DNA of 64,000 nucleotides, taken from positions 736,001 to 800,000 of the forward strand of contig CAWBZV010000003.1 of assembly GCA_963793305.1 (NCBI GenBank), written 5' to 3'. Source of the stretch: an uncultured Gemmatimonadales bacterium. GTDB taxonomy: Bacteria > Gemmatimonadota > Gemmatimonadetes > Gemmatimonadales > Gemmatimonadaceae. This document shows positions 19,098 through 46,834 of this stretch, in pieces (position 1 is the stretch's first letter; each line of letters begins with the position of its first letter). The notes under the pieces are model-generated. The model had not been told where the DNA came from, searched no databases, and saw only the letters and a list, made by a program, of their open reading frames with translations. The position numbers and the translations under genes are program-made.

Positions 19098-22000
19098 ATG
19101 AGAGCCCACCCTGTGATTGCAGTGTTAACCCTGCAGCTTTCCGACCATTCGCCAAGGCTCGTCATGTTACGTATGTGTCCCACGGCAACCCAGGTCATGT
19201 CTGGACTGCTCGTCATCCTGACTCAAATTACGGCTGCAGCTCAGGAGACAGTACAGATCACCCAGTTGGTCGATCGCGGGCCGATGTTCTACTCGTCGTC
19301 GCACGGGGAGCGCACGGCGGCGGTCGACGCGCGGACTATTGCGACATTGCAGCAGAGCATCTCCTTGGACCTCGATTCAGCGCCATTGCCACTGGCCATC
19401 GCTGCTATTTCACGCGCGGCACATGTGGAGATCAGTTTTCGCAACGAGGATGTACCGGTAAGTCACCGGGTCACACTTTCTGCTAAGAAGATCACGGTAG
19501 CCGCCGCTTTAACGGTTGCACTTTATGATCTGAATCTCGATGTCCGGATATCACAGAGTGGGAGCCTAAGCCTTTCTTCGCATAGCGCACCATCGGCCTC
19601 ACCGCGCAACGGCGAGCAACCCGCCGGAGAGATCGTTGGGGTAGTGACCGACGCCGATACGCATATTCCACTTATTGGTGCCGTCATCCACGTGGAAGGA
19701 ATCAATCGAACCGCGATCACCGGTACCGATGGAAAGTACAGCTTGTCGGGTGTTGCCTCCGGTGTCGCCACAATTGTAGCTCGCCGTCTCGGATATCTAC
19801 CTCTTAAGCACACGGTGACCATCAACGGCGAATCGAGCACGAACGTCGACTTCGCCTTGCACATCTCGCCTGTATCTCTCGACGAAGTTGTCACAACGGT
19901 CACCGGCGACGAAGAGAAGCGAAGTCTTGGGAATAGCATCGGTACTCTCAGGGTGGACTCACTTGTTGACGTCGCACCTGTTACTGATCTGGGCAGCATA
20001 GTTAATGCGCGTGTGCCAGGAGTGCAGGTGTTCTTCAATGGCGGGCTCACCGGGGCGTCGCCCCAGATAAATATTCGCGGTCAGAACAGTATGCAATTGT
20101 CAAATCAACCGTTGCTTTACGTAGATGGCGTACGAGTTAGCAACACTTCTGCTGGTCGCGCGGCCGATAGCACATCCGTGGGGGCGACATCGGGACGCCT
20201 AAACGACATTCTGCCCGAAGACATCCAGTCAATCGAAGTTGTCCGCGGCCCATCTGCCGCCACTCTGTATGGAACCGACGCGGCGAACGGTGTGATCTTG
20301 ATCACCACAAAGCACGGTGCGCCGGGTAGTCGCAAATGGACGCTATTCGGCGAGCAGGGAATGATGTCGGTGGATCGCGACCGGTTCCCCTACTCGTATG
20401 ATGCCTGGGGTACTACCACAGACGGCACAAATACCCCCACGGCCTGTGGGTTGCAGGCGCTTGCTACGAAGGCATGCACCGTAGACAGCATCACTCGATT
20501 CAGCCCTTTGAGGGATGCGGCTACGACTCCAATTGGCACAGGGCAGCACGCCAGTTACGGATTGCAGGTCGCGGGTGGAAATGGGGCGCTTCGTTACTTC
20601 GCCTCAGGTGGGTTGACCTCAGAACTTGGAGCGCTGAAACTGCCCGGACCCGACTTGAGCCTGTTGGCGGCCGAGCGAGGTGCGGTAGGCGTTGGTGATG
20701 CCGAGCGCAGGCCTAACGCACTCCAAAAATATAACGTTCGCGACAACCTTACAGCCGATCTTGGTGCTCGGGCTGACCTGACGTTGTCGACTTCACTGCT
20801 CTCCCAAGACTCTCGGATTCCTTCGTCGCCAGTCGCAGAGGGCACCCTTGGCCCGGGATACCGTGACGCATCCGATGGATGGGCGTTTGGCAATCGACCA
20901 GCTTACATATTCGCACAGCATAACGATGAGAGCATTACGCACATCACAGGCAGCGCGACCACTAACTGGCATACAACGGATTGGCTGACTAATCACGCAA
21001 TTGCAGGGATTGATTTTGACAACGAGTACTACAGCGGCCTGCTGCGAGCAGGGGATAGCCCGCTTGACCCCACTGGTTTTAGAACTAATACAAAAACTGC
21101 CACCACGCTCTATTCGGTCGATCTAGGATCGTCAGCATCTTATAACGTACCGCTATTGACCAGCGCTCAAACGTCAGTTGGGGTTCAGTACAATCGACAA
21201 CTGATCTTAATCAACACACTGTCCGCGAACAGCCTGATTCCTGGATGCACCACGTTTAGCTGTGGGTCACAGCCCGGGGGGCAAGAGGGTACTCAAGAAT
21301 CAGTCGTAGCCGGTGCGTATGCTGAGCAGCAACTCCGTTTGCGACCGACCCTATATTTGACCGGCGCTCTTCGAGCTGATGGCGGCAGCACCTTTGGTCG
21401 CGATTTCAAGGTCGCGCTTTATCCAAAGGCAAGTGCCTCGTGGGTAGTATCCGACGAGGCGATCTGGCCTCGCTCGCCGGTAATCAGCCAGCTTCGTTTC
21501 CGTGGGGCATTTGGAGAATCTGGTGTCGAGCCAAGTACAATTGCTGCATTGGCAACCGAAAGAATCTTTCCGGCAATAGTGGATGGACAGCCAGCCAGCG
21601 CCGCATTGGACCAGTCACCTGGCAACGGAAATCTTCAACCGGAACGGGATCGAGAATGGGAAGGGGGACTCGATGCGGATCTCTTTGGGGCGCGCGTGAC
21701 CCTATCCGCTACTTACTACGACAAAACAAGCTTTGATGACATCGTCAGTGTGACTTTGCCCGCATCTGAGGGCGGAAGTAGCGAAACCGTCAACGCAGGA
21801 TCCGTACGCAATTGGGGATATGAAGGACAGATCAGTATTCGCGCGTTGGCAAGCAAATGGCTTACGTGGGATCTAACGAGCAACGGATCAATCAACCACA
21901 ATCAGCTCGTGAAGCTCGCGCCACAGTTCGCGCCGATTATTAGCCCCGGCGGAGGTTCGAGTATAGTGGCCGGTTACCCACTCTTCTCCGCATTTGATTA

Positions 22001-22580
22001 CCCGATCCTCGGTTATCAAGATAAGAATGGGGATGGCATTATCGAACCAAATGAGCTCACGGTTGGCTCTACTCCGGTCTTCCGGGGGCAAATGTATCCG
22101 AAAGTGCAACTTACGTTGGGGTCGACGTTGGGCCTTTTCAACTCTCGATTCCATGCCAACATCCAATTTGACTATCGCGGTGGGTTCAGGCTTTTCAATC
22201 AAGTCCTAGCACTTCAATGCGCTGTTGGTGTGTGCCAAGCGCTTGAGACTCGTGGCGCATCGCTGGCTGATCAAGCACGCGCATTGGCTTACACAACGAA
22301 AGGTACAACTTGGGGGTACTATGAGGACGCTTCGTTCACTCGTCTGCGGGAAGTGGGTTTGTCTTATGATATGCCCCAGAGGGTCGCCCGTGTCATGCGA
22401 ATGCGAAGCGCGGTAATAACTGTCGCCGCGCGCAACTTGGCACTGTGGACGCGCTACTCCGGCCCGGATCCGGAAGTGGCAAGCAGTCCCGGCCAAAATA
22501 CAAACGTAGGTGCTTACTCTGACCTCGGCGGGTTACCGCCAAGCCAATATTATGTCATTCGCTTGTCGCTTGGGCTGTAA
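19098..22580 (+). CDS. SusC/RagA-family TonB-dependent transporter with N-terminal STN signalling domain
   Basis: STN-like [18 protein letters not shown]; carboxypeptidase-regulatory-like domain; plug motifs INIRG, [55 protein letters not shown]. Start is probably 19164-19197. Confidence 0.95.
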   Translation: [1160 protein letters not shown]

Positions 22581-22581
22581 C

Positions 22582-23964
22582 ATGTGGCCCATAATGGTAT
22601 TCAATCGCGAAGCGCCGGGGTTCGCCAAGATCTTTCGCTGCCTCATCGCGGTGCTTCCGCTGTTCACTGCGTGTAGCGACTTGACGCGTGTTACCGCTCC
22701 CGATGTGGTGCAGGAGGGGTCGCTTAACAATTCCTCGGGTGCCACTCTGCTCCGTAATGGGGCCATTACTAGCTTCAATGGCGCCTATGCTGAACAAGCG
22801 CTGCTCAGCGGAATGCTCTCGGATGAGTTTAGTGACAGATCGGGGGGGCAGTTCAAGTCTGACCAGCGCATTGTTCCGCCGATTGACCCAACCTCCTCGG
22901 TCGACCGATATCCGTATTCGGACTTAAGTGCCGCGCGAATAGCCGCCCTGCACGCGATCTCGACTACTGAGAAGTATGACACGACTGAGGGCTCGCAGGT
23001 GGGCGCGATGTTCGCCTATCTCGCGGCAACTGAGCTGTTCTTTGTTGAGGATCTCTGTTCGGGTGTTCCGGTTGGGTTATTCAGCAACGGTGCGGCTGCA
23101 CCCGGCCCCGTACTGGACCGCCAGGGCCTCATTGTCTTGGCGCTTCAACACCTAGATTCGGCGGCTGCACACGGCACGGCGAGCGATAGCGTAGAGAACT
23201 GGGCACGAGTGCTGCGTGCAAGGGCGCTTCTTGACAGCAACAATGTGCAAGGCGCGACCATTACCGCTGCGCAAGTACCCGATGGGTTTGAGTACGTGGC
23301 TCAATTCGGTGGTTCCGCGGTGCCATATAATATCGTTGCGTACTGGGTATACTCTGCATTGTACGCCTCAGTGTCAGATAATGAAGGCGGAAACGGACTC
23401 GATTTCGTGAGCGCTCACGATCCGCGAGTGCCGACGCAGGACCTAGGGGCCGGGGCAGGCGGCGGAGAGGTATTCGGTTTCGCGTTGTACACGACTCTCG
23501 GTTCGCCCATCGTTGTGGCCGGATCCGTCGAGGCCAGGTTGATTCAGGCGGAAGCGTTATTGCGAGCCGGACAGACGAGCCTATGGATACAAATACTGAA
23601 CAACCTTCGAACGAATTCGACTTTTAGCACCCACCCGGATTCGGCAAACCCGTCGCAGACCGACACGGTCTGGAATGCAGGGACTGGAGGTGTATCCGGT
23701 TTGAGCCCAGTAGTGATTCCGGCATCAGCTGCTGCCCAAGTCGATCTAATGTTCCGTGAGCGTGCGTTTTGGCTCTTTGGGACGGGTCATCGCCAAGGCG
23801 ACTTGCGACGACTCGTTCGTCAGTACGGGCGATCTGTTGGGATCGTCTTTCCCTCCGGGACCTATCAGGGCGGACCCGCGCAATATGGGACGGACGTAAC
23901 CTTCGTGCCGTACTTCGAGGAAAACAACCCCGCCTATCACGGGTGTGAGAATAGAAATCCTTGA
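22582..23964 (+). CDS. SusD/RagB-family outer-membrane lipoprotein
   Basis: Lipobox FTAC; EARLIQAEA, LNNLR, RERAFWLFGTGHRQGDLRR; directly follows the susC-like gene. Confidence 0.9.
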   Translation: MWPIMVFNREAPGFAKIFRCLIAVLPLFTACSDLTRVTAPDVVQEGSLNNSSGATLLRNGAITSFNGAYAEQALLSGMLSDEFSDRSGGQFKSDQRIVPPIDPTSSVDRYPYSDLSAARIAALHAISTTEKYDTTEGSQVGAMFAYLAATELFFVEDLCSGVPVGLFSNGAAAPGPVLDRQGLIVLALQHLDSAAAHGTASDSVENWARVLRARALLDSNNVQGATITAAQVPDGFEYVAQFGGSAVPYNIVAYWVYSALYASVSDNEGGNGLDFVSAHDPRVPTQDLGAGAGGGEVFGFALYTTLGSPIVVAGSVEARLIQAEALLRAGQTSLWIQILNNLRTNSTFSTHPDSANPSQTDTVWNAGTGGVSGLSPVVIPASAAAQVDLMFRERAFWLFGTGHRQGDLRRLVRQYGRSVGIVFPSGTYQGGPAQYGTDVTFVPYFEENNPAYHGCENRNP

Positions 23965-24019
23965 CCCGAGCCATCATCCTGCCGCTGCAGGTTTGAGTGC
24001 GCGTCTCAACAATCGCTTA

Positions 24020-26578
24020 ATGTGCCGACTTGCTGCGCGCGTGTCACGGTCAGTGATCGCCCAAGTCATTACCTACTCCGCGCTCGCAGCTATCGTGGGC
24101 GCCCGAGTATGTACTGCCCAGGTAATAGCACAGAGCAAATGGAGTTATGCGAGTTGGGTTCGACAGCGCGTGACTCCACCAGAGCACCCGGCGCTGACAC
24201 TCCGAGGGGATGCTGTAGCCTACGCATTGAATCGTGCGCTCGAGAAGACGCTGCGACGGTATGGCGGTGCGCAGATCCTCAACGACGTGTGGTTTGCTGC
24301 AGCACCGAAATGGCAGCCAACGAGAATCGTAAGCCAGGGCGACGAGGGTATGCTGTTCAGCGGGCTTCGCTGGTCTCCGGATGGAGAGTCACTGGCGTTT
24401 CTCGCCACGCATGGGTTGCGTAGCGTTCTTGAAGTTTGGAACAGACGCACGCATCGGATTGTCGTCACCAGTGCGTGTGTCATCAGAGCTCGGGCTGCGT
24501 ACCCACCCGAAACTTGGGCACCGATTTGGATCGATAGGCACCATGTCAGTCTGTGGATTCGAGCCGCACGATGTCGACCTGAAGATGGTCACATTTGGTC
24601 GGAAGAGTATCAGGGGATTGCTGACGCCGAAGCAGCCTGGCGACGTTGGGAAAACGGGCGAAGCGCAACATACGACGTGTTGCAGTCTGGCGTAGAACAA
24701 GACCCCGAGAGATTTCCCTTGGCCGAAATCATCGTCCTCGATACTTGGACGGGAAAAATCTCGTGTATTGCGCGCGGAGTGTTTGACCAAGTTCTCCCTT
24801 CGCCTGATCGGCATATGCTCGCAATACTTGTTGCCCGGAAATTCGTGACGCCGTCAGAAAATGTACGATGGCGGCATCTCTGGACGCATTTCCTATCCGA
24901 TGTGCTGCTGCTTCCTGTGTTGCATCCAGCCGACAGCGCAGTGGTGTCAACGAATGGTTCCGCCATGTGGCGCAGTTTGCGGTGGTCGCCAGACGGGGAG
25001 CGTCTTGCTTTCATCGATTACGATCCGAATACAAATGCTCCACCCTGTGCTGTTGCATACAGTTGGAGGCTATCCCGTCGCACTGTCAATTATTGCGGAT
25101 CGATCGGAGATGGGTCAGCTGTACCTAACGACCAATGGGCGCTTGATCACCCGGCTCAGCACAGTATTGCCTGGACAGGCACCGGCGATCTTGCCGTAAG
25201 ATTACAGAGCCGCACGTCCCAGCGGGACCGATCAGATTGGGTGCTTGTACATGACTCCACTCCGGCCATTAACCTGACGGGTTGCCTGCAGTCCGTACCA
25301 GCTGAACTGTATGCGGATAGTGGACGCACCTTCGCTCTTGCCGACGGGCGGCTAATCGTGCTCGAAGTGCTGGCTGGAGGGGGCTCGGTCGCTGGATGTC
25401 GACCGGTCGAGGGAGACGTGCCCGCGAATATGGGCGTTGATACCGTTGTGGCGACCCAGCCTGAGCTCGCGCTGCGCGTTGCTGTCAGAGGGGCGAACGC
25501 CGGGCACTCAGCCTATATCCGGGTTGCGCGAGGGCGACAGACCGTACAACTGTTGGAATTGCCCAAGGCTCTACGACAGGGTTCGGTCGCCGCCGAATCA
25601 TTTGATGTTAAGCAGTTGCGCGCGCTAGTGGCGGTCTTGAATGACAGCGATGGCACTCAACGATTCGCAGTCTGGACCGCCTCCGACGGTTACCATCTGC
25701 TGGCAAAGGTCGCGCAGCATTTGGCTCATGTCCTCGAGCACACCATCGTGTATCGCTCTCAGCGTGGCGAAATACTCGGCGCCCGAGTGACTTTGCCAGT
25801 TGGGTATGATTCAACTAAACGCTACCCTACAATTGTCGAAGTTTATCCTGGCATCCTGATTCCAGCCGTACACGCGACGCGAGTTGTTGTTGCTAGTCCT
25901 TACTCCGTCGAAGGATTTGCTGTTTTAACTCCGAGCATGCCTTACGATTACAGCTTGGATAGCGGGAGTGTAGAGCCTTTCTCAACACTAACAAATGGAG
26001 TGCTGCCGGCGATCGACGAAGCAGTGAATGAGGGACTCATAGACTCCGCACGAGTTGGAATCCTGGGCCACAGTTTCGGCGGCTTCGCCGTGTATGGCCT
26101 TATCGCGCAGACGACACGGTTTCGCGCTGCTGTTGCCCTCAACGGAATGAGTGATTTTATCTCGGCCTACGGGAGCATGTACCCACCGGAGCGATACGCC
26201 GCGAATCCACTGACAGTGTCATATGAAATGAGTTATTTCGAATCGGGTCAAGTGGGTCTCGGCAGTCCTCCGTGGGACGCGGTGGACGCGTATGTTCGCA
26301 ATAGCCCTTTCTTCCATATAGCTACGATTCATACGCCTTTGCTGATCGCTCAAGGAGACATGGATGTGACGCCAATCTCGCAAGGCGAGCAAATGTTCAA
26401 CGCGTTGTTTAGACTTGGCCGACGCGTTGACCTGGTGCGCTATTGGGGCGAGGGTCACAACATCGGTGGTTCATACTTCAACGCTGTTGATTTTGAGAGT
26501 CGCGTTGTTAGTTGGTTTCGAGAGTTCCTGAGTGTACCTGACTCGACGGACAAGCATCGCGTTGATGCAGAACACTAG
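24020..26578 (+). CDS. S9 prolyl-oligopeptidase-family peptidase, candidate lasso isopeptidase
   Basis: WSPDG propeller repeats; triad motifs GHSFGG, QGDMD, GEGH; signal-like N-terminus; adjacent to lasso genes. Confidence 0.85.
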   Translation: MCRLAARVSRSVIAQVITYSALAAIVGARVCTAQVIAQSKWSYASWVRQRVTPPEHPALTLRGDAVAYALNRALEKTLRRYGGAQILNDVWFAAAPKWQPTRIVSQGDEGMLFSGLRWSPDGESLAFLATHGLRSVLEVWNRRTHRIVVTSACVIRARAAYPPETWAPIWIDRHHVSLWIRAARCRPEDGHIWSEEYQGIADAEAAWRRWENGRSATYDVLQSGVEQDPERFPLAEIIVLDTWTGKISCIARGVFDQVLPSPDRHMLAILVARKFVTPSENVRWRHLWTHFLSDVLLLPVLHPADSAVVSTNGSAMWRSLRWSPDGERLAFIDYDPNTNAPPCAVAYSWRLSRRTVNYCGSIGDGSAVPNDQWALDHPAQHSIAWTGTGDLAVRLQSRTSQRDRSDWVLVHDSTPAINLTGCLQSVPAELYADSGRTFALADGRLIVLEVLAGGGSVAGCRPVEGDVPANMGVDTVVATQPELALRVAVRGANAGHSAYIRVARGRQTVQLLELPKALRQGSVAAESFDVKQLRALVAVLNDSDGTQRFAVWTASDGYHLLAKVAQHLAHVLEHTIVYRSQRGEILGARVTLPVGYDSTKRYPTIVEVYPGILIPAVHATRVVVASPYSVEGFAVLTPSMPYDYSLDSGSVEPFSTLTNGVLPAIDEAVNEGLIDSARVGILGHSFGGFAVYGLIAQTTRFRAAVALNGMSDFISAYGSMYPPERYAANPLTVSYEMSYFESGQVGLGSPPWDAVDAYVRNSPFFHIATIHTPLLIAQGDMDVTPISQGEQMFNALFRLGRRVDLVRYWGEGHNIGGSYFNAVDFESRVVSWFREFLSVPDSTDKHRVDAEH

Positions 26579-26595: not shown

Positions 26596-27537
26596 TCATG
26601 TCCTGACCGTCGGCGGCGACAATGCCGGCGTTTCAGCAAAGCAATCCACTAGCTCAAGTAGGTCATCCCGAACCTGCGACAAACGAGACGGCCGCTGCTC
26701 AGGCGCGCATCGCAGCATCGCCGATAGCAGAGCCCGCAGCCCAAGTGGAACAGGTGGTTCCGTTGGAAGCTCAACGTCTTCGCTGAGACGCCTAAGAACG
26801 AATGGACCAGTAAACAGGTCGGGAGTCTCAGGCCCCTTGACTAGACGCTCCAACGGCGTTTCAGACATCGGCGATCGACCATACAAAAGATGATACATCG
26901 TTGCGCCAAGAGCGAATACATCGGTCGCGCGCAGCTGCTTCCGGCCCGCAAGCTGTTCGGGCGCCATGTACCAAACCGTTCCGCCAAATTGCCCAAACCG
27001 TGTGCGCTCGGCGCCACTCACATCCTCAGTGAGCCTTGCTGCATGGCTGAAGTCGATGAGTGTCGCTTCACTGAATCTCGCTGTGCCAGCAGTCCAAGGA
27101 ATCATGATATTAGTCGGCTTCACATCTCTATGAAGCCAACTCAACTCATGTAGGGCCCCAAGAGCACCGGCAACGGCGGCAGCAACTGTGGCAACAGCGG
27201 ACCACATTGTCGAGTCCGACCGAACCATCTCATCCGCCGAACTGCCGTCGATCCATTCAGTAGCGACATAGCGGTGGGATGCATCAATCCAATCATGTGC
27301 AATGAGTCTACTCGCGTTCGGGTGTTTTAAGGTGGTCAGAATTTGTCCTTCCTTCTCAAGCATCAGCGTGCCGATGGTTGAGCTATATCTTGCCACCTTA
27401 AGTGCACAATGCCGGCTCGACTGGCTATCGACAGCGAGAAAAACGAAAGCGCATCCACCACGCCCGAGACGGCGCTCAATTGTGAAACGAGACGCGATCA
27501 CCTGCCCTTCTTGATAGTCAATGGTATTCTCTCGCAT
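26596..27537 (-). CDS. Hanks-type Ser/Thr protein kinase (kinase domain only)
   Basis: LGRGGCAFVF, ALK, HRDVKPTNIM, DFS (for DFG), YMAPEQ, DVFALG, PEQRP. Confidence 0.92.
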   Translation of the reverse strand: MRENTIDYQEGQVIASRFTIERRLGRGGCAFVFLAVDSQSSRHCALKVARYSSTIGTLMLEKEGQILTTLKHPNASRLIAHDWIDASHRYVATEWIDGSSADEMVRSDSTMWSAVATVAAAVAGALGALHELSWLHRDVKPTNIMIPWTAGTARFSEATLIDFSHAARLTEDVSGAERTRFGQFGGTVWYMAPEQLAGRKQLRATDVFALGATMYHLLYGRSPMSETPLERLVKGPETPDLFTGPFVLRRLSEDVELPTEPPVPLGLRALLSAMLRCAPEQRPSRLSQVRDDLLELVDCFAETPALSPPTVRT

Positions 27538-27731
27538 AGAGCCGACAGTAAAGAGCGCGATGTGAATTGGGCCAGGTTTGTCTCACGCGGTTAGGGGCCG
27601 GAACGGGCGCATGGAGCGCCAGCTTATCTCATTCCTCCGCTGATCTCATGAATCGGCCACCTGGGATACTCGCCATCGGCGACCCCGAGAGGTAGTCTGC
27701 ATCCTCTTCCTGTTGCAAGTGGAGTTTCGCA

Positions 27732-28025
27732 ATGTCTCGAACGGAACTGCAGCCTCTCCTCTCCGAGCGGTGGAAGCCACGGCCCAGTGTAATTTCGGTG
27801 ACTCGAGATGATGAGACAATAATCCTGGATGCTGAGACGAGTCACTACTATGCATTGACCGGCGTTGGTGGACGTATTTGGGAACTCCTCTGCGATTCAT
27901 GGCCAATCAATGCCATAATCGACCAGATTGCGCAAGAATCGCATGAGCTTAGGACGGTAATTGATCTTGATGTCCGCGCCCTAGTGAGCGAATTGCAGGC
28001 CAGGTTACTGGTGGTCGTTGCATGA
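27732..28025 (+). CDS. Lasso peptide B1 protein (PqqD-like RiPP recognition element)
   Basis: DETIILDAETSHYYALTGVGGRIWELL...DVRALVSELQARLLV. Confidence 0.9.
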   Translation: MSRTELQPLLSERWKPRPSVISVTRDDETIILDAETSHYYALTGVGGRIWELLCDSWPINAIIDQIAQESHELRTVIDLDVRALVSELQARLLVVVA

Positions 28026-28423
28026 CTTCGCCGCGATACGCACCGAGCTTCGCTTATTGCGCCATCGCACTCATGGTAGTGCGTACAATGCTGAAGGTGC
28101 GAGGCCTGGGCGCGACGGTGCGCTTCACTCAAAGTGCGTCGCGAATATCGGGCCCCAACTGTGGCGACGGAGTCACATTGACAACTGAGACGGCTACACG
28201 AGTCGCTACTGCGGCAGCGTTCTTCCCGGGGCGGGCGCGCTGTCTCGAGCAGTCGATAGTGTTGCAGTACCTACTTCGTCGGCGTGGAATTGCGGCCGCG
28301 CTGCGATTAGGGATGGAACCACGTCGACCGATTGCACACGCGTGGGTTGAGGTGGGCGGCAATCCGGTAAATGAGGGGCGCGAAACGGTACGCAAGGTTG
28401 TGCCCCTGCCGGAGTTGACGTGA
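28022..28423 (+). CDS. Lasso peptide B2 leader peptidase (transglutaminase-like)
   Basis: ARCLEQS catalytic Cys, LRLG, AHAWVE. Confidence 0.93.
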   Translation: MTSPRYAPSFAYCAIALMVVRTMLKVRGLGATVRFTQSASRISGPNCGDGVTLTTETATRVATAAAFFPGRARCLEQSIVLQYLLRRRGIAAALRLGMEPRRPIAHAWVEVGGNPVNEGRETVRKVVPLPELT

Positions 28424-30309
28424 GGCCATTTCTAGTTGGGCGAGCTGCCTCGATCAGAATAGCTTCGATTGTTGACCGCGCAACACGCGATCTTGAAGCT
28501 GCACGGTTGCCGGTGGCCCAGTTGCATCAGCCGCACGACCTGCCCATCGCGGCCATTGTGACTCTTGACAGCAAGGGTATCGCACCGGTGGCCCGTTCGG
28601 GACGGCATGTAGTTATCGGCGAGGCCCGTCTCCACAACCAACGTGAACTAGCTGATCTGATCAACCCATGCGAGCCCCCATGCAGCGATCTCTCAATTGT
28701 TGCGAGAGGTATCGCAACAGGTAGTTGTGATGTGCTTCAGCGCCTGATTGGTGACTTCGCATTCATAGCTTGGAATCGTGAAGCGCGAACGTTATTAGCA
28801 GCACGTGACGCCCTCGGCATTTTCCCGCTCTATTGGCTCGCCGTTGATCGTAGCGTAATCTTCTGCTCGCGTGTACGTCCGATCGTGGACGATCAACGGC
28901 TGAGTGGTGAATACATTGCTGACTTCTTGGCCGCGGGCTGTGGAGTTGCCGGCTATACGAGCCATGAGTCAATCGTAGAGGTTCCCCCCGGAGGGTACGT
29001 ATCGGTCGATGCGGATGGTCGGGTAGCTGTCGGCCGGTATTGGCGCGCCGAGGCATTTACGCGTCGTGCCAAAAGCGACCCTGACGGCGAGGCGGCGGAG
29101 TTTCGAGCCCTGCTTCAGACAGCCGTCAGTAGCCGCCTTACCTCGGATGGGCGAACATGGTCTCACCTGTCGGGCGGGCTCGACTCTTCATCAATAGTCT
29201 GTGTGGCAGAGTCGCTCGCGGCGGACGGCATGGCACCAGTCGGCCTCGGCGGCACGGTGACATTTGTCGATACACTAGCGAGCGCCGATGAGCGAGAGTT
29301 CTCTGATCTTGTTGTAGAGAAATGGCAGGTACGTAACGAGCAAATCGTTGACTATTGGATGTGGCAATGGGACGAGGTCGGTCCTCCAGATTTTGATCAA
29401 CCTCACTTGTTCTACCCATTTTACGCACGTGAACGTCGCATGATGAAGGTGGTCGGCGACAACGGCGGGGTGGCACTGTTATCTGGTCACGGATCTGACC
29501 ACTACCTCACAGGGTCGCCACTACTGTTGGCTGATTTGCTTGCACATGGTCGCATTGGTCAGCTGTTGCATCAGGCGACGTCGTGGGCGGTTGCGAATCG
29601 TAGTTCGTTCTGGAAGTACCTATACCGTCGTGCTATGCTGCCGAACTTCCCGTCCGATCTTCGAGCCCGCTTCTTACCGCGCAGTGGCCGGCCGCCAGAC
29701 TGGATTATGCCAAAGTTCGTGTCGCGACACGAGCTCAGTAATAGAACTGCGATGGCGGAAGAACTCGCCGGTCAGCGCGGAGAAAAGTTCAGCCATAGCG
29801 TTCTCTACTACCTGCGGCAAGTCGGCTCGCAGTTACCCCGAAGTTTCCTAGATGATGAGATCGAAGTCAGATATCCGTTTTTGGATCGCCGGCTCGTCGA
29901 GTTTTGCCTTACGCTCAAGCCTAGTGCGATAGCCCAACCGTTGTATAGCAAAGTCCCCCTCCGTCTCGCCATGCGAGGTGTTCTGCCGGAGCGGATCCGC
30001 ACTCGTGCGGGCAAGGGCACATTGGGCGCTCGATTTCGCTGGTCCCTCGACCGGGAGCGCGAGACAGTAACCGAGCTGGTAACTGATCCCATCCTAGCAG
30101 ACTATGGCGTGGTCGAGCCCATTGAGTTGGGACGGGCGCTGCGCCGAGTCCAGGAAGGGCGATCAACTCGCTATCACTGGTTGATACGATTTTTGGCGCT
30201 AGAGACCTGGCTCCGAGTACGGTCTGGTCGGTGGGCAGGTCGATCTGGACTGACCGATAATTTCGTTGTTGATACGCTGCACAAACATCAATTAGAGAGG
30301 ACAGTATGA
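28420..30309 (+). CDS. Lasso cyclase (asparagine synthetase-like C protein)
   Basis: GDFAFIAWN, ARDALG, LSGGLDSSSI, LLSGHGSDH, RYPFLDRRLVEF; no N-terminal Cys1; follows B1/B2. Confidence 0.92.
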   Translation: MRPFLVGRAASIRIASIVDRATRDLEAARLPVAQLHQPHDLPIAAIVTLDSKGIAPVARSGRHVVIGEARLHNQRELADLINPCEPPCSDLSIVARGIATGSCDVLQRLIGDFAFIAWNREARTLLAARDALGIFPLYWLAVDRSVIFCSRVRPIVDDQRLSGEYIADFLAAGCGVAGYTSHESIVEVPPGGYVSVDADGRVAVGRYWRAEAFTRRAKSDPDGEAAEFRALLQTAVSSRLTSDGRTWSHLSGGLDSSSIVCVAESLAADGMAPVGLGGTVTFVDTLASADEREFSDLVVEKWQVRNEQIVDYWMWQWDEVGPPDFDQPHLFYPFYARERRMMKVVGDNGGVALLSGHGSDHYLTGSPLLLADLLAHGRIGQLLHQATSWAVANRSSFWKYLYRRAMLPNFPSDLRARFLPRSGRPPDWIMPKFVSRHELSNRTAMAEELAGQRGEKFSHSVLYYLRQVGSQLPRSFLDDEIEVRYPFLDRRLVEFCLTLKPSAIAQPLYSKVPLRLAMRGVLPERIRTRAGKGTLGARFRWSLDRERETVTELVTDPILADYGVVEPIELGRALRRVQEGRSTRYHWLIRFLALETWLRVRSGRWAGRSGLTDNFVVDTLHKHQLERTV

Positions 30310-30470
30310 ATACGTACTCCTACATTGCTCCGCGTTTGATCGATCGGGGCTCGGCAATTACTCGCACGTTAGGCTCCGGCGGTGATACGGCTGACGGCGG
30401 CCTGAATCACGTCAAGGCGAATTCAACCGTTGGCGCAACGACCTCGAGCGACTCAACCCCGGGGACATGA
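30306..30470 (+). CDS. Lasso precursor A1 (54 aa; not in ORF track)
   Basis: MNTYSYIAPRLIDRGSAITRTL|GSGGDTADGGLNHVKANSTVGATTSSDSTPGT. YxxPxLxxxG leader, Thr at -2, Gly1 and Asp8; GAGAGG RBS. Confidence 0.92.
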   Translation: MNTYSYIAPRLIDRGSAITRTLGSGGDTADGGLNHVKANSTVGATTSSDSTPGT

Positions 30471-30551
30471 TCACGGTAAAGGGAGCCTGAGCGACACACT
30501 TTTCGATGGTGCCGACCAGACCGCTTACATCTCAGTCTCCCTCGCGGACCA

Positions 30552-30583
30552 TCGCAACGGTACGAAACAGCGTACCGTTGCGA
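30552..30583 (+). other. Stem-loop after A1
   Basis: TCGCAACGGTACG-AAACAG-CGTACCGTTGCGA, perfect 13-bp stem with no U-tract. Confidence 0.7.
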
Positions 30584-30714
30584 CTATCCGATGTAACTCA
30601 GCTCAAGTCGCCGCTACGGCTTCGGAGTTCGTGCCAAGATTTAAGTAGTAAGGGTCCAACCTGACCGATAGTTTCGTTTTGAGACGTAGCGCACACTCAA
30701 TTAGAGAGGACAGT

Positions 30715-30882
30715 ATGAAAGCGGCTCACTCTTACGTAGGGCCCCGTCTAATCGATCGGGGTTCGGCTATTACTCGCACGTTGGGCGCGAACGGCGATAC
30801 GGTTGATGGCGGCCTGAATCACATTCGGTTGAACTCAACCGTTAACGCAACGACCTCGGACGACTCAACGTTTGGGACATGA
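30715..30882 (+). CDS. Lasso precursor A2 (55 aa)
   Basis: MKAAHSYVGPRLIDRGSAITRTL|GANGDTVDGGLNHIRLNSTVNATTSDDSTFGT; same leader motif, Gly1 and Asp8. Confidence 0.92.
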   Translation: MKAAHSYVGPRLIDRGSAITRTLGANGDTVDGGLNHIRLNSTVNATTSDDSTFGT

Positions 30883-30948
30883 AGGGTAGGGGGAGCCTAA
30901 GCGACGCATTTCGATGGCGATTCCTGCTTACAACCTCCGCCTCCTCAC

Positions 30949-30994
30949 GGTTGTCGCAACGGTTACGCTACAAGCTCTTGCCGTTGCGATAACC
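30949..30994 (+). other. Stem-loop after A2
   Basis: GGTTGTCGCAACGG...CCGTTGCGATAACC, 14-bp stem with one G-U pair. Confidence 0.65.
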
Positions 30995-31073
30995 AATGCA
31001 ACTCCGATCAAGATCGCAGGTACGGCCGCGACTATGGTCTTGCAGTCCGTGTCCAGAACCTGGTGAGGGTTCG

Positions 31074-31247
31074 ATGGGCTACGCTTATGTAAAACCTCGA
31101 TTAATTGATCGGGGCTATGCCGTTGCGCGAACGCAGGGCGCCGGTGGCGCAACGGTCGATCCTGTGATAACGCCCGGGCGGCAGGAGACTCATGGTGAAC
31201 TGTCAACGGCGGCCGACTCGACCGCAAGTGGCGACCTGCGTTGTTAA
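31074..31247 (+). CDS. Lasso precursor A3 (57 aa)
   Basis: MGYAYVKPRLIDRGYAVARTQ|GAGGATVDPVITPGRQETHGELSTAADSTASGDLRC; Gly1 and Asp8. Confidence 0.9.
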   Translation: MGYAYVKPRLIDRGYAVARTQGAGGATVDPVITPGRQETHGELSTAADSTASGDLRC

Positions 31248-31367
31248 CCATCAATAACCCTAGTCAAGAGACACGTGATTTGATCGATTCCTCATTCAGC
31301 AAAACGCCGACTCCCTTGCTGTTATCTACGGCAACCCGTACGACCACCACTTCTACGCTGTGAGATC

Positions 31368-31463
31368 AGGCAGGGTGGTGACACTGTCGATCCCGGTGAA
31401 TCCGGGCGCAACTACGAATCCACTGCCGAAGTCTCCACATTGGTAGATTCAACGCGTGGTACC
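31368..31463 (+). pseudogene. Leaderless fourth lasso core remnant
   Basis: The frame reads RQGGDTVDPGESGRNYESTAEVSTLVDSTRGT and aligns with the A3 core. There is no in-frame start or leader back to the TGA at 31281. Confidence 0.65.
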
Positions 31464-32015: not shown

Positions 32016-32327
32016 GGGGCGCCCCTCCCTGCCGAGGCGCCAACATGGGGTCAGATCGCCTGGCTGCGAGCAAAATCGCTTCATCGGGAATCTGGTATTT
32101 GGCGAGTGTGCGATTCGAGTGTTAGCGGCGGCGCGAGATTGCACGAAATCGGCGGCGATAATTGCACACTTTCGTCCATTGCGTGGCAGAAATCGTGCTG
32201 GTTGGGCCATGACGCGTTTGAGCAACGTGCCCGAACGTGCACAAATTGTGATATGTAGCATTGGTCCATCTGGCGCGATCGCCCCGCTGACTCTGTATTG
32301 CTTCGATCTATCAGGGTCGAGGCCTCA

Positions 32328-33368
32328 GTGTACGGGTGGGACCGACTCGTGCTGCTCAAACACTTGCTGGAAGAAGGCGTGCCGAAGACGGTCATCGCGG
32401 ACCGGCTCGGCGTCAGTCGTCGGGTGATCTACCACTGGATCGAGAGCGGCCAACTCGATCGCGATCTCGCGGAGCCGCCGCCGCCGCGCCGACGCGTGGT
32501 GTACGCGAGGAAGCTCGATGCCTATAAGGCCATCGTGGATACGCGCCTCGCGACGTTCCCGGAGCTGAGCGCGGTGCGGTTGTTCGAGGAGTGTCGCGCC
32601 GCCGGGTACACCGGCAGTCTGACCCAGCTCAAGGTCTACGTGCGCGGCGTCCGACCACGACCCGTCGAAGAGCCGGTGATCCGGTTCGAGACCGCCCCGG
32701 GCGTTCAAGTCCAGGTGGACTTCGCCGATGTGCGCTTCCCCTGGGGGAAGCGCTACGCGTTCCTGGCGGTGCTGGGCTACTCGCGGTTGTTGTATCTCGA
32801 GTTCGTGGAGCGCCAGACGATGGACGCGGTCGTGCGAGGTCTGGAAGCCGCGTTCACCTACTTCGGGGGCGTGCCGCAGGAGGTGTTGTTCGACCAGATG
32901 CGGGCCGTGGTCGTGAGCGATGCCCGTCCTCGGGGCGGCCGGCTGCTGGAGAACCCGGAGTTCCTCCGCGTCGCGGCACACTGGAGCTTCCGCATCCGCG
33001 CCTGTCGGCCGTATCGCGCTCAGACGAAGGGCAAGATCGAGCGGCCGGTGAGCTATCTCCGGCGGAACTTCCTCTACGGCCGCACGTTCCTCGGCGACGC
33101 GGATCTGGCGTCGCAGGCGCGGGCCTGGCTGGGTGGCACGGCCAACGCTCGCGTGCACGGCACGACGCACGAAGTGCCACGACTGCGCTTCGAGCGCGAT
33201 GAACGGCCCGCGCTGGGTCCGCTGGCGGTGCGGCCGTACGAACTGCTCGTCCTGCCCACGGCGCGCCGGCCGGCGAGTTCGCGCAGCGCGCCGGCCGTTC
33301 CGCGGATCGCCGTCGAGCGACGGCCGCTCGTGGCGTACACGCGGCTGGCGAGCGGGGGGCAGCGATGA
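32328..33368 (+). CDS. istA: IS21 transposase
   Basis: RFETAPGVQVQVDF, LGYSR, FGGVPQEVLFDQM, PYRAQTKGKIER, HGTT. Confidence 0.95.
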   Translation: MYGWDRLVLLKHLLEEGVPKTVIADRLGVSRRVIYHWIESGQLDRDLAEPPPPRRRVVYARKLDAYKAIVDTRLATFPELSAVRLFEECRAAGYTGSLTQLKVYVRGVRPRPVEEPVIRFETAPGVQVQVDFADVRFPWGKRYAFLAVLGYSRLLYLEFVERQTMDAVVRGLEAAFTYFGGVPQEVLFDQMRAVVVSDARPRGGRLLENPEFLRVAAHWSFRIRACRPYRAQTKGKIERPVSYLRRNFLYGRTFLGDADLASQARAWLGGTANARVHGTTHEVPRLRFERDERPALGPLAVRPYELLVLPTARRPASSRSAPAVPRIAVERRPLVAYTRLASGGQR

Positions 33369-34210
33369 CGCCCACTACTCCGCCCACCCTTCGCGATCGG
33401 ATCCGCGCCCAACTCGCCGACCTCAAGATGCCGGGGAGCCTCGAGGCGCTTGACGATATCCTCCGCCAGGCCGATAGCGGTGCGCTCGTCGCCGGCCCGG
33501 CGATCGAGCAGGTCCTGGGCGCCCACATCGCGCTGCGTAACGCGCGCCGGTTGGAGACCGCGCGCCGCGCCTCGCGCTTGCCGGCGATCAAGACGCTGGC
33601 CGACTTCGACTTCAGCTTCCAGCCGAGCGTGCGGCGCGAGCAGATCGCGAGCCTCCACACCCTGGGCTTCATCGAGCGCAAGGAGAACGTCGTGTTCTTA
33701 GGCCCGCCGGGCGTCGGGAAGACGCACCTCGCGCTCAGTCTCGCGGTCGCCGCCGTCACGGGTGGGCGGCGGGTCTACTACACCACGCTCGCCGAGCTCG
33801 TCGTCTCACTCGAAGAAGCCCAGGCGCAGGGCCGGCTCTCGCATCGCCTGCGGACGCTCGTCTTCCCGAGCCTCATGCTGGTCGACGAGATCGGCTATCT
33901 GCCGCTCAGTCGCACCGGGGCCATGCTCTTCTTCCAGCTCATGTCGCGGCGCTATGAAGTCGCGAGCACCATCCTGACGAGCAACAAGGGCTTCGAAGAC
34001 TGGGGCGACATCTTCGGCGACGACGTGATGGCGGCCGCGCTCATCGATCGGCTCGTGCACCACTGCCACATCGTCAACATCCGCGGCAACAGCTACCGCA
34101 TGAAGCACCACGCCGAGCTCTACGCGGCGTTGCACCCCCATGAACATGAACGAGAACAAGATCGACCCCCCAAACCCAAGGCGTCACGCCGGGAGGTTGC
34201 GGCGCGCTAG
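33365..34210 (+). CDS. istB: IS21 helper ATPase
   Basis: KTLADFDFSFQP, GPPGVGKTHLA, LVDEIGY, TSNK, DRLVHH, GNSYR. Confidence 0.96.
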   Translation: MTPTTPPTLRDRIRAQLADLKMPGSLEALDDILRQADSGALVAGPAIEQVLGAHIALRNARRLETARRASRLPAIKTLADFDFSFQPSVRREQIASLHTLGFIERKENVVFLGPPGVGKTHLALSLAVAAVTGGRRVYYTTLAELVVSLEEAQAQGRLSHRLRTLVFPSLMLVDEIGYLPLSRTGAMLFFQLMSRRYEVASTILTSNKGFEDWGDIFGDDVMAAALIDRLVHHCHIVNIRGNSYRMKHHAELYAALHPHEHEREQDRPPKPKASRREVAAR

Positions 34211-35952: not shown

Positions 35953-37839
35953 CTATTTATATCCGGCAGCCTGCATCATGAACAGTTCCCGGTAGAGGCC
36001 GGCGCGACTGACGAGATCATGGTGGACCCGTGGTCTCGCGATGGCGCCCCCTCCCCGAAGGACAATGATTCGGTCTGCCATTCGCACTGTGGAGAAGCGG
36101 TGCGAGATTGACACCGCCGTCCGGGCACTCGTTACGGTTCAGAAGAACCGGTTCGAACACTTCATATTCAGCGCGAGCATCGAGTGCCGCAGTCGGCTCG
36201 TCGCACACGAGCACTTGCGCGTTTCGCATGTACGCTCGGGCGAGCGCGACTTTTTGCCACTCGCCACCGGATAGGTCGACGCCACCTTCGAATCGACGGC
36301 CAAGGACCTGACGATAGCCTGCCGGAGTCGCCAGGTAGCACTGACGCGGCGAGCGAGCGCTCCGCGGCGTTGGCGATTGCGGGCGAAGACGGAGTGCTCG
36401 ATCGCGACAGCATTGTCATTGGCGATGTGCTTGCGCTACCGTGATCTCCCAACCGCAATGTTCTCATCGAATCGAAAGTCGTAACGAACGAAATCCTGAA
36501 AAATGACGCCGATAGCATTGCGAAGTGAGTGAATGTCGTATTCTCGAAGGTCAATCCCATCCAAGAGCACTCGGCCTTCGGTCGGATCGTAAAGCCGAGT
36601 AAGGAGTTTCGTCAACGTCGTCTTGCCGGCTCCGTTCTCGCCGACAAGGGCGACCCGTTCTCCTGAACGAAGCTCGAGGTTAACGCCTCTGACTGCCCAA
36701 CGATCGCTATTGTGGTAGCGAAATCCGACATTCTCGAATACGAACCCGTGTTGGATCGCCTTCGGGACAAGCAAGCCTTGTTGGCGAATGCTTATGGCAG
36801 GCCGAATCTCGAAGTACAGGAACAGGTCTCGCAGGTAGAGTGTCTGGTCGTAGATCTCTCGGAATGTCTGCAGGATGCTCTGGATGTAGCTACGGCTACC
36901 GGAGAACGAAGAGGCGAGGAAGGTCAGTGTGCCGATCGTGATGCGTCCGCGTGCAGCGTCGGCGAGGATCAGAATGTACGCGATGTAGTAGCCTAGCGTG
37001 CCAAGGATCGGCAGGGCTCCGCTGACCCAGGCGCGCTGGATCGCCAGAGTTTTGTTCTCCTCGTAGAAAGTCTGAGACATCGTGCGGAACCGTTCGACCA
37101 ACCACGGGGCGAGCCCGAAGGTCTGTACCTCCTTCGCTGTCTTGTCGCACGCCCCGACATAGCGCAGGTACTCAAGCATGCGCCGACCCTCGGTGCGGCC
37201 GAAGAACAATGAGTACGCTCGGCGAGAATAGTGCGTCTCACCAATGAAGCTCGGGAAGATCGCAAGGACCAGGAGTCCCAGCAGCCACGGGTTGAAGGCG
37301 ACGATCGCGCCGCTCAAGCTGAGCAACGTCAGTGAGTACTGGCAGACGCTCAGGAGCTGACCGAGCAGAGTGAGCCGTGCCGTCGAATTCTGCCGCGCAC
37401 GTTCGAGCAAGTCATAGAATTCCGAATTCTCGAACTGCTCGAGATCGAGCGTCGCGGCGTGCTCCATGATCCGGACACTGACATGATTCGTGAACAGGTC
37501 GCCAAGCAGGCTCTCGACCAACGTCGATGCCCGGGATATCGCCTGGTCCGTCACGACGATCGCGATCTCGATCGCGACGAGCGTCCACAGGTGCCGCCAG
37601 TCGGGACCGTGCTGGCGCGCTTTGACGACAGCATCGATGATGAGCTTCGCCACCCACATCGTCGCCAGCGGCGTTGCCGCCCGGACGATGCGGAGCACCA
37701 TCATCGCGAGCGTCAGTTGCCAGTTCGTCTCCCAAATCAGCGCGATGAACTTTGGAACGTACCTGAGCGCGGAGATCCGGTCGCGAAGCTTGGGCGGCTG
37801 TTTGGCAGCCGTGCCGTTACTGCCGTTCGTCGTCGCCAC
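35953..37839 (-). CDS. ABC exporter (fused TMD and NBD), frameshifted in the C-terminal part; candidate lasso exporter
   Basis: GENGAGKT, VIFQDF; downstream frames give LSGGEWQKVALARA, DEPTAALD, SHRFSTVRMAD, ELFMMQAAGYK*. Confidence 0.88.
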
Positions 37840-37848: not shown

Positions 37849-38040
37849 TCAGGGGTGTGCCGCGAGCAATGTCGGCGTAGCGGTCGTCACTGGCGTGGTG
37901 GAGTGGGCCACCGCCTTGTGCGCGTGGTGACGCGTCGAGCGAAATACGGAGCACAACGGCTCGAACGCCAGCGCTGCCGTGAGTCCAGCAGCGATCAAAC
38001 CCGCACTTGCGAGCACGACAATCCGATGACGCAGTGACAT
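37849..38040 (-). CDS. Small exported or membrane protein
   Basis: GGAG RBS; hydrophobic N-terminus; His/Thr-rich tail; stops 10 bp before the ABC gene start. Confidence 0.5.
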   Translation of the reverse strand: MSLRHRIVVLASAGLIAAGLTAALAFEPLCSVFRSTRHHAHKAVAHSTTPVTTATPTLLAAHP

Positions 38041-38202
38041 GCGATGATCTCCTGCCTGTCACCGCAACGTAAGGTTCGCTGCTCGCGCTCGATACGAACC
38101 ACTAGGCGAATCCCGGCCACACCCACGACAAACGCACGCCCGCATGGAGCGCGCGTCGTAGCGTCGTGGTCTACTGAGCGAGCACGTCGAGCGCGATCGC
38201 TC

Positions 38203-39039
38203 TCAGTACTCGTCCCACTGCCGCGGCCGATTCGGATCGTCGTCATCCCACCCCAGCACGTCATGCGGCAGCGGCGGCAGCTTGAGCCGCTCCTCATTCG
38301 CCGCCCACGCCTTGCGGATGATCTTCTGCAGCGTCTCATACGCCGAGACCATCTTCCACCCCTCCCGCGTCGGCACAATGAGCGGATCCTCATCCCGATG
38401 CGTCATCTTCGCCCGTAGCGTCCGGAACGTCGTCCGATACTCGGGATGCACCGAGCTCCAGTCGGCCTGGAAGTACGCCTCGAGCAGCGTGTCGTGCGGG
38501 ATGCTCTTGCCGGCGAGCATGAAGAGGTGGAAGAAGACGTTGAGCTCCTTGTCGGTGAGCCGCGTCGTGCGACCGTGGCGCGTGACGTTGCGCGTGTGGA
38601 GGTTGACGGTGATGCCTTGGCTCTTGATGATCGGCACACCGGGCGGCTCAGGCTTCGGCGCCTTCCGCATGAAGTTGAGCATCTGCTCGAGCAGTTGCTC
38701 GGAGTCGAACGGCTTCTGGATGCACTTGAGATCCAGCTCCACCTGATCGACCGCGATCATCTCGATCGGGTAGCCCGTCATGAGAATCGTCGGCACCGTC
38801 GAGCCGTACTTCCGCGTCAAGCGAAAGAGATCGAGGCCCTTGATGTCGGGCAGGAAGACATCGAGGAGGAAGAACGATGGCGGCGGGATCGTGAGCGTGT
38901 AGCGAAGGGCGCGCGGGGCATCGGGTGCGGCGCGCACCTCGAACCCGGCGTCGCGCATGGTGCGCGCGGCCATCGCGAGGACGGCGCGGTCGTCCTCACA
39001 GATCACGACGGTCCGGCCGGCGAGCTCCGAAGTGGTCAT
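38203..39039 (-). CDS. OmpR-family response regulator (divergent)
   Basis: VICEDD, FLLDVFLPDIKG, LMTG, QKPF, LTDKELNVF, TLRAKM. Confidence 0.85.
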   Translation of the reverse strand: MTTSELAGRTVVICEDDRAVLAMAARTMRDAGFEVRAAPDAPRALRYTLTIPPPSFFLLDVFLPDIKGLDLFRLTRKYGSTVPTILMTGYPIEMIAVDQVELDLKCIQKPFDSEQLLEQMLNFMRKAPKPEPPGVPIIKSQGITVNLHTRNVTRHGRTTRLTDKELNVFFHLFMLAGKSIPHDTLLEAYFQADWSSVHPEYRTTFRTLRAKMTHRDEDPLIVPTREGWKMVSAYETLQKIIRKAWAANEERLKLPPLPHDVLGWDDDDPNRPRQWDEY

Positions 39040-39452
39040 TTCTCGCTATCCAAGAAGAAGAATGGCGCGAGTAAGGAACTACAGACAAATGAATCACTTC
39101 GCAAGTGGGCAACGGACTCAGCCGTAGCAACATTTACTAGCGCGGTGTGACGATAACGGCTATATGACCTCTACGTCGATACGTAATCGTCACGCTTCAT
39201 GCGTCTCTCTTCTTCAGGGAGGCGAAATGTGCCGGAAATACGTCGCCGACGACGCATTGCTGTGTATGGATCGCATGACGTACGGCGGCGGGAGGGCCAG
39301 TGGGTCGTCCCCGCCGAGCGAAACAGGTACGGGCTCTGCAATTAGAGGCCATCTGACCAGACGGTGTCGCGACTCGGTCAGACCACAAATCCGATTCCGC
39401 GCGACAGACGTATAACCATGCAGCGTATAGTGTGTAGCCGCATAGGGTACGC

Positions 39453-39746
39453 ATGCGGCAACATCCACCTAGTATGACACCACAGGCATCGCGGCAGCCT
39501 ATGCAGCAAGCTGTGGATCGGCCAGAGGCTCCGGCCCGCATTACGTTCGCCACGAACGTCCGGCGAGCGAGAATGCAACTCGGTATCTCCCAGGAGAAAC
39601 TCGCCGAGCTCTCTGGGCTCCACCGGACGTTCGTTTCCTCCGTCGAGAGAGGCGAACGCAATATCTCGGTCGACAATATGGAACGCGTGGCTTCCGCACT
39701 TCGCGTGAAGCTCGCGATCCTGCTCACGCCGCCACTCGGCGACTGA
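39453..39746 (+). CDS. XRE-family HTH regulator
   Basis: FATNVRRARMQLGISQEKLAELSGLHRTFVSSVERGERNISVDNM. Confidence 0.92.
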   Translation: MRQHPPSMTPQASRQPMQQAVDRPEAPARITFATNVRRARMQLGISQEKLAELSGLHRTFVSSVERGERNISVDNMERVASALRVKLAILLTPPLGD

Positions 39747-39766
39747 GCAAGCGACCCCTGGGAGAT

Positions 39767-39804
39767 CGGCCGGCCGGCACACCGTAAAATGTGCCGGCTG
39801 GCCG
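39767..39804. terminator. Hairpin between convergent XRE genes
   Basis: CGGCCGGCCGGCACA-CCGTAAAA-TGTGCCGGCTGGCCG, 15-bp stem. Confidence 0.6.
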
Positions 39805-39812
39805 GTGGGCCA

Positions 39813-41344: not shown

Positions 41345-41353
41345 CGCGTTGCG

Positions 41354-46796: not shown

Positions 46797-46834
46797 GCAG
46801 AGTTCACAGTAGTTCGCGATGCGCCGACCCCGCG

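Follow-up and report, generated by a model that had tools for sequence, protein, structure and literature searches.

We analysed a 64,000-nucleotide stretch of DNA from an uncultured Gemmatimonadales bacterium (GenBank assembly GCA_963793305.1, contig CAWBZV010000003.1, positions 736,001 to 800,000 of the forward strand), hereafter the window, in which genes for lasso peptide biosynthesis lie next to a gene for a stand-alone Hanks-type Ser/Thr kinase. A previous reading of this DNA from its letters alone (the sequence-only reading) had described the proteins B1, B2 and C, three precursors and the kinase, and all of them were found as open reading frames (ORFs) where that reading had placed them. 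Window positions and strands are as follows:

26596..27537, minus strand: stand-alone Hanks-type Ser/Thr kinase of a lasso-linked clade (Pkinase, 123 bits)
27732..28025, plus strand: B1, RRE protein with predicted leader binding (PqqD, 44 bits)
28022..28423, plus strand: B2, leader peptidase (Transglut_core3, 75 bits; NF033537, 73.8 bits against a cut-off of 33)
28420..30309, plus strand: C, lasso macrolactam synthetase (Asn_synthase, 111 bits; SGGLDSS motif)
30306..30470, plus strand: precursor A1, 32-aa core with Asp8, tail DST with Thr29
30715..30882, plus strand: precursor A2, 32-aa core with Asp8, tail DST, a duplicate of A1
31074..31247, plus strand: precursor A3, 36-aa core with Asp8, tail DST and a C-terminal Cys

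Judged from its genes and their motifs the cluster is a class II lasso-peptide pathway with intact enzymes. B1, the B2 cysteine protease and the asparagine-synthetase-like C are clustered, and inspection of the sequences found intact catalytic motifs in B2 (CLEQS and AHAWVE), C and the kinase. C scored 204 bits with the lasso cyclase model NF033535, below the cut-off of 525, and B1 was below the cut-off of both lasso RRE models. The precursors had been described as sharing the leader YxxPRLIDRG..RT(L/Q) directly before Gly1, with Asp8, cores of 32, 32 and 36 aa and DST tails, and this was borne out, so that each carries a YxxPxL leader, Thr(-2), a small first residue and an acidic acceptor. 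A1 and A2 are 79% identical over 155 nt and as products of a duplication are not independent of each other. A2 and A3 were also recorded as called proteins on a separate contig of 6753 bases, and an assembly error is thus unlikely to account for the Cys end of A3. The ORF at 31241-31363 was considered as a fourth precursor and rejected because it lacked a leader match. A scan for promoters and terminators gave nothing above chance level. Directly after A3 (31850-32290) lies a degraded stretch which by eye, unaligned, resembles the start of the adjacent IS21 transposase. The kinase gene is head-to-head with B1 and the two starts are 194 bases apart, matching the roughly 195 bp claimed earlier.

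A kinase clade and a conserved precursor tail

The window kinase is about 300 aa long and carries the motifs GRGG, ALK, HRDVKPTN, DFS and APE. K47, E63, D138, N143, D162, APE and R282 were invariant in 13 sequences, as expected of a Hanks-type kinase. Its structure model predicted a bare Hanks domain (predicted local distance difference test score of 89.7) with PknB as the best fold match; the model consists of the kinase domain alone, and a sensor domain is absent. No HPr-kinase match was found in Pfam, NCBIfam or the fold comparison, and only the kinase part of the LanKC/LanL models aligned with the protein. This genome contains 51 Pkinase matches, and adjacency alone is thus weak evidence of a link between this kinase and the lasso genes.

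Relatives of the kinase formed a small and distinct group. Protein search returned six relatives of 301-318 aa with 165-194 bits, the next score falling to 130. A FastTree phylogeny of 68 kinase domains placed 14 stand-alone proteins in one clade with a support of 97 and all 36 other kinase domains of this genome outside it. The clade carries a specific insert after helix F. Profile search of 1.84 billion proteins returned mostly multi-kinase proteins and added four clade members, and three more probable members found by profile search lie outside the tree sample. The family as found comprises about 17 proteins, four of them with genomic context and these from one genus. When all candidates were scored, three of the five other genomes of the genus had one clade member each at 373-390 bits, scores raised partly because those kinases are in the profile, and the next best candidate reached 202 bits. 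One of these kinases (genome G002) was also recovered by a profile built without it.

Lasso genes adjoined the kinase in all four clade members with visible context, namely in the window genome (G000), G002, G003 and G005. The G005 kinase, from a genome of the same genus, corresponds to a protein recorded as Gemmatimonadaceae, and the host probably belongs to that family. The sequence-only reading had named absence of the kinase beside homologous clusters as one result that would speak against it; members of the kinase clade were found beside lasso genes, and this condition thus did not refute it. The kinase gene is divergent from B1 in G000, G003 and G002 and lies between a precursor and the S9 peptidase gene in G005. 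The G002 kinase contig ends within B2. A methyltransferase gene adjoins the kinase in G002, further neighbours there we take to be mnmA-like and cysteine-desulfurase-like, and no conjugation genes were found in the part of these surroundings that was read.

In the following scans beyond the kinase clusters clade members were not found. The 94 of 99 scanned stretches lying elsewhere (up to 20 kb each, some ended by contig ends) contained zero clade members and two generic long kinases. A scan of a genome collection with the cyclase returned one distant locus, which had no kinase, and a metagenome scan with the kinase alignment returned at least 77 loci with generic kinases, none of them, among the matches listed, in the clade or beside lasso genes. 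The plasmid collection gave generic kinases only (about 28-32% identity) among the best 15 of 541 records. Four of 400 genomes sampled from the family matched, one of them (G171, locus L112) with a longer kinase outside the clade on an 8-kb contig without lasso genes. Further clade members were not found in these 400 genomes or in 400 genomes of the phylum (0/400), where five candidates were scored per genome and the zeros mean not found rather than absent. The family and phylum tallies include a few unpublished genomes, and the specific claims made here are independent of them.

The precursors beside the clade kinases shared their far C-terminus. G003 has two 40-aa cores that end in D-T-T-V-G-S and G005 one 32-aa core that ends in P-D-N-T. 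A profile of these six precursors recovered two more in G005 with the same ending, an orphan pair (L143:12929-13623; G005:C261, about 28 kb) separated by 11 kb from their cyclase and placed upstream of SusC, at the cargo slot's far edge. Across the eight precursors the invariant core positions were Gly1 and the D and T of a D-[S/T/N]-T motif only, and the invariant tail columns of the alignment were D49 and T51 only, while the ring and loop were variable. All eight cores were 31-40 aa long with a ring acceptor at position 8 or 9 and the motif within the last 12 residues; each had 6-10 Ser/Thr after the ring. The DST tail of the sequence-only reading is present in all three window precursors and was rejected as the motif because the relatives carry DTT and DNT; D-[S/T/N]-T is the conserved form. 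Between the motif Thr and the C-terminus there are 0, 3 or 7 residues. The proposal of an internal Ser/Thr site likewise fits the window and is not general, as the motif Thr is the last residue in one genome.

Cores without a clade kinase rarely carried the motif. One of 57 control cores (1 of 44 loci) had D-[S/T/N]-T among its last 12 residues, as did 1 of 25 beside close cyclases, and D-x-T was present anywhere after residue 9 in 3 of 57. The control cores came from automatic calling, and there are probably false calls among those with low scores; with cores scoring at least 18 the motif was in 1 of 45. In shuffled cores the chance of D-x-T in the last 12 residues was 0.06-0.23 per core, and the motif is therefore meaningful only through its conservation across genomes. 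Four kinase-free loci with the same SusC/SusD/S9 layout (L021, L022, L170 and L185) had cores of 22-27 aa, one doubtful 53-aa ORF aside, most ending in hydrophobic residues and all lacking the motif in their final 12 positions. No D-x-T precursors were found in the two genus genomes without the kinase, and a search of 5.8 billion proteins with the precursor profile gave nothing beyond seven sequences already known. Lasso B2-like genes were present in 199 of 301 family genomes sampled, and several distant clusters (L196, L204, L208, L211, L218 and L224) had 31-48 aa cores, often Cys-containing, with divergent cyclases.

Cargo slot of a conjugative element

The cluster is larger than had been described, extending upstream to SusC, SusD and S9 peptidase genes and downstream, beyond an IS21 element, to an ABC exporter:

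19098..22580, plus strand: SusC/RagA-type TonB-dependent receptor, putative importer (TIGR04056, 370.8 bits against a cut-off of 368.25)
22510..23964, plus strand: SusD-like lipoprotein (weak SusD_RagB match, 17 bits, below cut-off)
23945..26578, plus strand: S9 peptidase, isopeptidase or tail-trimming candidate (Peptidase_S9, 73 bits; GHSFGG and EGH motifs)
32298..34210, plus strand: IS21-family element istA/istB between precursors and exporter (NF033546 and NF038214 above cut-off)
35953..37839, minus strand: ABC exporter, frame interrupted in its C-terminal half (ORF ends at 36436 after 467 aa)
38040..54021, minus strand: conjugative-element backbone flanking the slot (response regulator, TrbI, VirB8/CagX, TraG-type ATPase; Pfam)

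The S9 gene is tail-to-tail with the kinase gene. Its product scored 55.8 bits with the Atxe2 isopeptidase model NF033523 (cut-off 400), with the catalytic domain alone aligned, and its best PDB matches were general S9 peptidases with no lasso isopeptidase among those listed. An isopeptidase label for this gene was therefore rejected. The kinase clusters of G003 and G005 have homologs of SusC (45-49% identity) and SusD (43-46%) and intact exporter homologs of 630 and 623 aa (84-90%). The IS21 element is outside the lasso pathway. Between it and the exporter, at 34377-35593 on the minus strand, are two overlapping ORFs (216 and 253 aa) that may be parts of a single split gene and had no Pfam or NCBIfam match and weakly kinase-like Atlas neighbours (scores below 0.9); a comparison with the G003 and G005 clusters did not find them there.

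The three complete clusters (G000, G003 and G005) occupy one slot of related conjugative elements, and they probably share an origin, as judged from this common position. Type IV secretion genes (TrbI, VirB8, CagX, TraG P-loop and TrbL) were found in the window and its relatives. No integrase, relaxase or attachment-site family was seen among window ORFs in general scans, no dedicated search having been made. Backbone DNA was 66-90% identical to G003 and G005 at 12.7-17.3 kb on the left and 36-54 kb on the right. Inside the 18.7-kb slot only a 74-bp piece, in SusD, matched between genomes at the DNA level. Identities between the clusters were 32-38% for the kinases, 34-39% for the cyclases, 29-31% for S9 and 80-90% for the exporters, with cluster enzymes overall 32-47% and cargo proteins about 29-49% identical, and gene order differed. 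In a quick tree the three cyclases did not form one clade and one was a long branch.

Several further features were noted at the element. Its backbone (window 12700-17300 and 35950-54800; L143, L144, L145, L146 and L228) is common to four genus genomes and the slot is hypervariable. The G001 contig, with an 89-92% identical backbone, runs only as far as the cargo slot, and searches gave no match to the cargo in that genome. ECF sigma factors and response regulators are encoded beside the slot. Defence-like genes lie to its left (676-15002: a split BrxL-like ATPase, a C5 DNA methylase, an HNH nuclease and an AAA ATPase), and to the right of the transfer genes (49335-63891) are a beta-lactamase-fold serine hydrolase, a PAS histidine kinase, a glycosyltransferase and a type II secretion set. 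The exporter of the G005 element is flanked by a DUF6065 protein (L024:12062-12874) and a 387-aa Cys-rich protein with no assigned family (L024:15709-16872). The window genome has two other lasso clusters, both kinase-free: one with SusC/SusD/S9 and 22-23 aa cores (G000:C3, about 510-513 kb; L022) and one with a split cyclase and no precursor found (G000:C5, about 655-657 kb; L026).

Proposed pathway, alternatives and related systems

Taken together, the co-occurrence of the kinase and the tail motif in a small related set supports, through comparative genomics, a link between the two. Our proposal, with a probability of about 0.6, is that the precursor tail is phosphorylated by a dedicated Hanks-type kinase with no relationship to lasso kinases of the HPr type, and that the Thr of D-x-T is the most likely site. 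In such a pathway B1 would bind the YxxP leader and the kinase would phosphorylate the tail of the linear precursor ahead of cyclisation, with the Thr of D-[S/T/N]-T as the most likely site and the terminal Ser/Thr or multiple tail Ser/Thr as alternatives. This order is suggested because known lasso kinases use the linear precursor, some aided by B1 (PMC9266682; PMC10368454). B2 would cleave after Thr(-2)-x, C would close Gly1 onto Asp8 and the ABC exporter would send the product out. By analogy with receptor-and-peptidase lasso clusters, re-import via SusC/SusD might then be followed by breakdown or trimming by S9. PknA and PknB favour Thr with acidic residues on its N-terminal side (PMC7164672; bioRxiv 10.1101/2025.01.12.632604), a preference that fits D-x-T, as an analogy only.

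A number of observations weigh against this proposal. DFS replaces DFG in the window kinase and HCD replaces HRD in the G002 kinase, whose precursors were sought on further contigs and not found. Context was seen for four kinases, the 10 other clade members and the three probable ones being without it. The three clusters, from one genus and one slot, are not independent, and some of the correlation between kinase and motif could be due to common ancestry. The motif was defined after six sequences had been viewed and the two held-out precursors are paralogs from a genome already used; a Fisher p of 2.5e-4 is overstated, as the effective sample is three related clusters. One control core (L160) has DTT and no kinase. 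Seven of the eight cores also end in Ser/Thr, which makes the phosphosite ambiguous, and a C-terminal Ser is not conserved: the window cores end in Thr, Thr and Cys, and Ser ends two of the eight overall. The long cores that the sequence-only reading took as the mark of a class are real (32, 32 and 36 aa) and not diagnostic. Cores of at least 31 aa were found in 16 of 57 controls, 2 of 25 beside close cyclases, so that long cores by themselves are not unusual in this family and length was rejected as a stand-alone marker. Finally, the exporter is interrupted in this assembly. Other genes of the assembly are also split, among them several kinase matches and one cyclase, and the break may for that reason be a sequencing error.

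Hanks kinases normally regulate proteins, and the kinase could be regulatory here, with a protein of the pathway or some regulator of the conjugative element as its target and D-x-T kept for, e.g., binding to SusC/SusD or the exporter. Divergence of the kinase from B1 in three genomes and the ECF sigma factors and response regulators beside the slot would suit such a role, but the kinase is a bare domain that lacks a sensor, SusC/SusD clusters without the kinase also lack the motif, and presence and absence of the motif follow those of the kinase; we regard this as rather unlikely. About as improbable is a tail that serves for recognition or as a follower, phosphorylated or merely bound and then trimmed, so that the mature lasso is short and unphosphorylated and phosphorylation gates maturation, export or turnover. 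Conservation at the far C-terminus beside a variable ring and loop is what it would predict, the tail below the steric lock is dispensable and often trimmed in lasso peptides (PMC13352647), and the S9 enzyme is distant from known lasso isopeptidases (56 of 400 bits; none in the PDB matches). However, S9 homologs also occur in kinase-free short-tail clusters, which argues that S9 is not tail-specific, and a follower still requires a link between kinase and tail, overlapping with tail phosphorylation as proposed above.

Kinase and tail might also be functionally unlinked passengers from one ancestral cassette. These are related elements of one genus, the genome has many kinases and generic ones lie near 2 of the 94 control loci. 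Against this, both features persist although the cargo has diverged to a single short DNA match, low protein identities and a shuffled gene order, and the cyclases do not group as one clade in the quick tree; we hold this to be quite improbable. Least probable, and in our view very unlikely, is that the phosphate is an intermediate, which an enzyme encoded at another locus eliminates, giving dehydroamino acids, or decorates further. The kinase has distant homologs in the kinase domains of class III/IV lanthipeptide synthetases, and a dehydroalanine lasso peptide from a hybrid system, cited in PMC13352647, was reportedly described in 2025, which from its title may be relevant. The flanking ORFs scanned, many of them without a family match, held no lyase, nucleotidyltransferase or glycosyltransferase common to the kinase clusters, and no lyase family match such as a dehydrating kinase-lyase pair would need.

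If tail phosphorylation is correct, recruitment of a Hanks kinase would be a convergent solution to lasso phosphorylation, and D-x-T a short portable motif with potential as a tag for phosphorylating stable peptide scaffolds. Lasso clusters with TonB receptors and peptidases have been called enigmatic and likened to siderophore systems with cargo release, their function being given as unresolved (PMC9266682), and tail phosphorylation would also offer a chemical handle on what they do. A more tentative extension, which we consider improbable though somewhat less so than the alternatives above, is that conjugative elements of this genus bear interchangeable cassettes for lassos of up to 40 aa, whose Ser/Thr/Asp-rich tails would be turned by a repurposed signalling kinase, through multiple phosphorylation, into a polyanionic arm, for metal capture and release or as an element-specific signal with SusC/SusD and S9. 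Metal capture would be in keeping with an acidic, phosphorylated tail, and a signal with a cargo that diverges rapidly and is carried by a conjugative element. These would be the longest lasso peptides yet described, and the proposed cargo-release role of receptor-linked lasso peptides would become directly testable.

Compared with known systems the cluster resembles several and matches none completely. Isopeptidase-type clusters (astexin, sphingopyxin, rubrinodin) likewise have a TonB-dependent receptor, an S9 peptidase and a nearby sigma factor, and that of rubrinodin also an ABC transporter (PMC9266682); the present cluster differs in its SusC/SusD pair, in the very low score of its S9 enzyme with the Atxe2 model, in having a kinase and in being carried by a conjugative element. 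Pandonodin, with 33 aa and an 18-aa tail, has the longest tail and a disulfide, and the available part of its description mentions no kinase (PMC13352647); the 36- and 40-aa cores found here would be longer if made intact. The cyanobactin enzymes DolG and AphG also recruited a PKc-like (Ser/Thr/Tyr protein-kinase) domain to phosphorylate a ribosomally made peptide with post-translational modifications (RiPP; PMC12639078), but that domain is inside a macrocyclase and targets cyanobactin Tyr/Thr, whereas the present kinase stands alone in a lasso pathway.

Lasso kinases in the literature found were HPr-kinase-like or acted on a terminal or ring Ser, and nothing found there described a lasso cluster with a stand-alone Hanks kinase, subscription journals being largely uncovered and supplements outside the search. 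The sequence-only reading had characterised known lasso kinases as HPr-like and acting on a C-terminal Ser, which is right for the paeninodin type but does not cover BsfK, which modifies Ser3 (PMC10368454). BsfK of the Bradymonas sediminis Bsf system and LppK of the Bacillota LPP system are also clustered kinases, acting on a non-terminal residue of an RRE-bound precursor (PMC10368454; PMC13381572). Their site is Ser3 and LppK is HprK-like; here Ser3 is not conserved, and the leader keeps Thr(-2). Similar in layout is the paeninodin/pseudomycoidin type (PadeK, ThcoK, SyanK and PsmK), likewise with A, B1, B2, C and a clustered kinase, which acts on the C-terminal region of the linear precursor (PMC9266682; PMC8498205). 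There the kinase is a homolog of HPr kinase, has a His-Lys-Asp-Asp motif and modifies the C-terminal Ser, in contrast to a Hanks-type enzyme with a PknB-like fold and, as the probable site, a conserved Thr of D-x-T 0-7 residues from the end; the cores here are 31-40 aa, and no nucleotidyltransferase common to the kinase clusters was found among the flanking ORFs scanned. A new class of lasso peptides, as first claimed, overstates the case. The window appears instead to hold a lasso pathway with a non-homologous kinase, one that would work like the paeninodin and pseudomycoidin pathways without being a member of them, since kinase family and site differ (PMC9266682; PMC8498205; PMC12639078).

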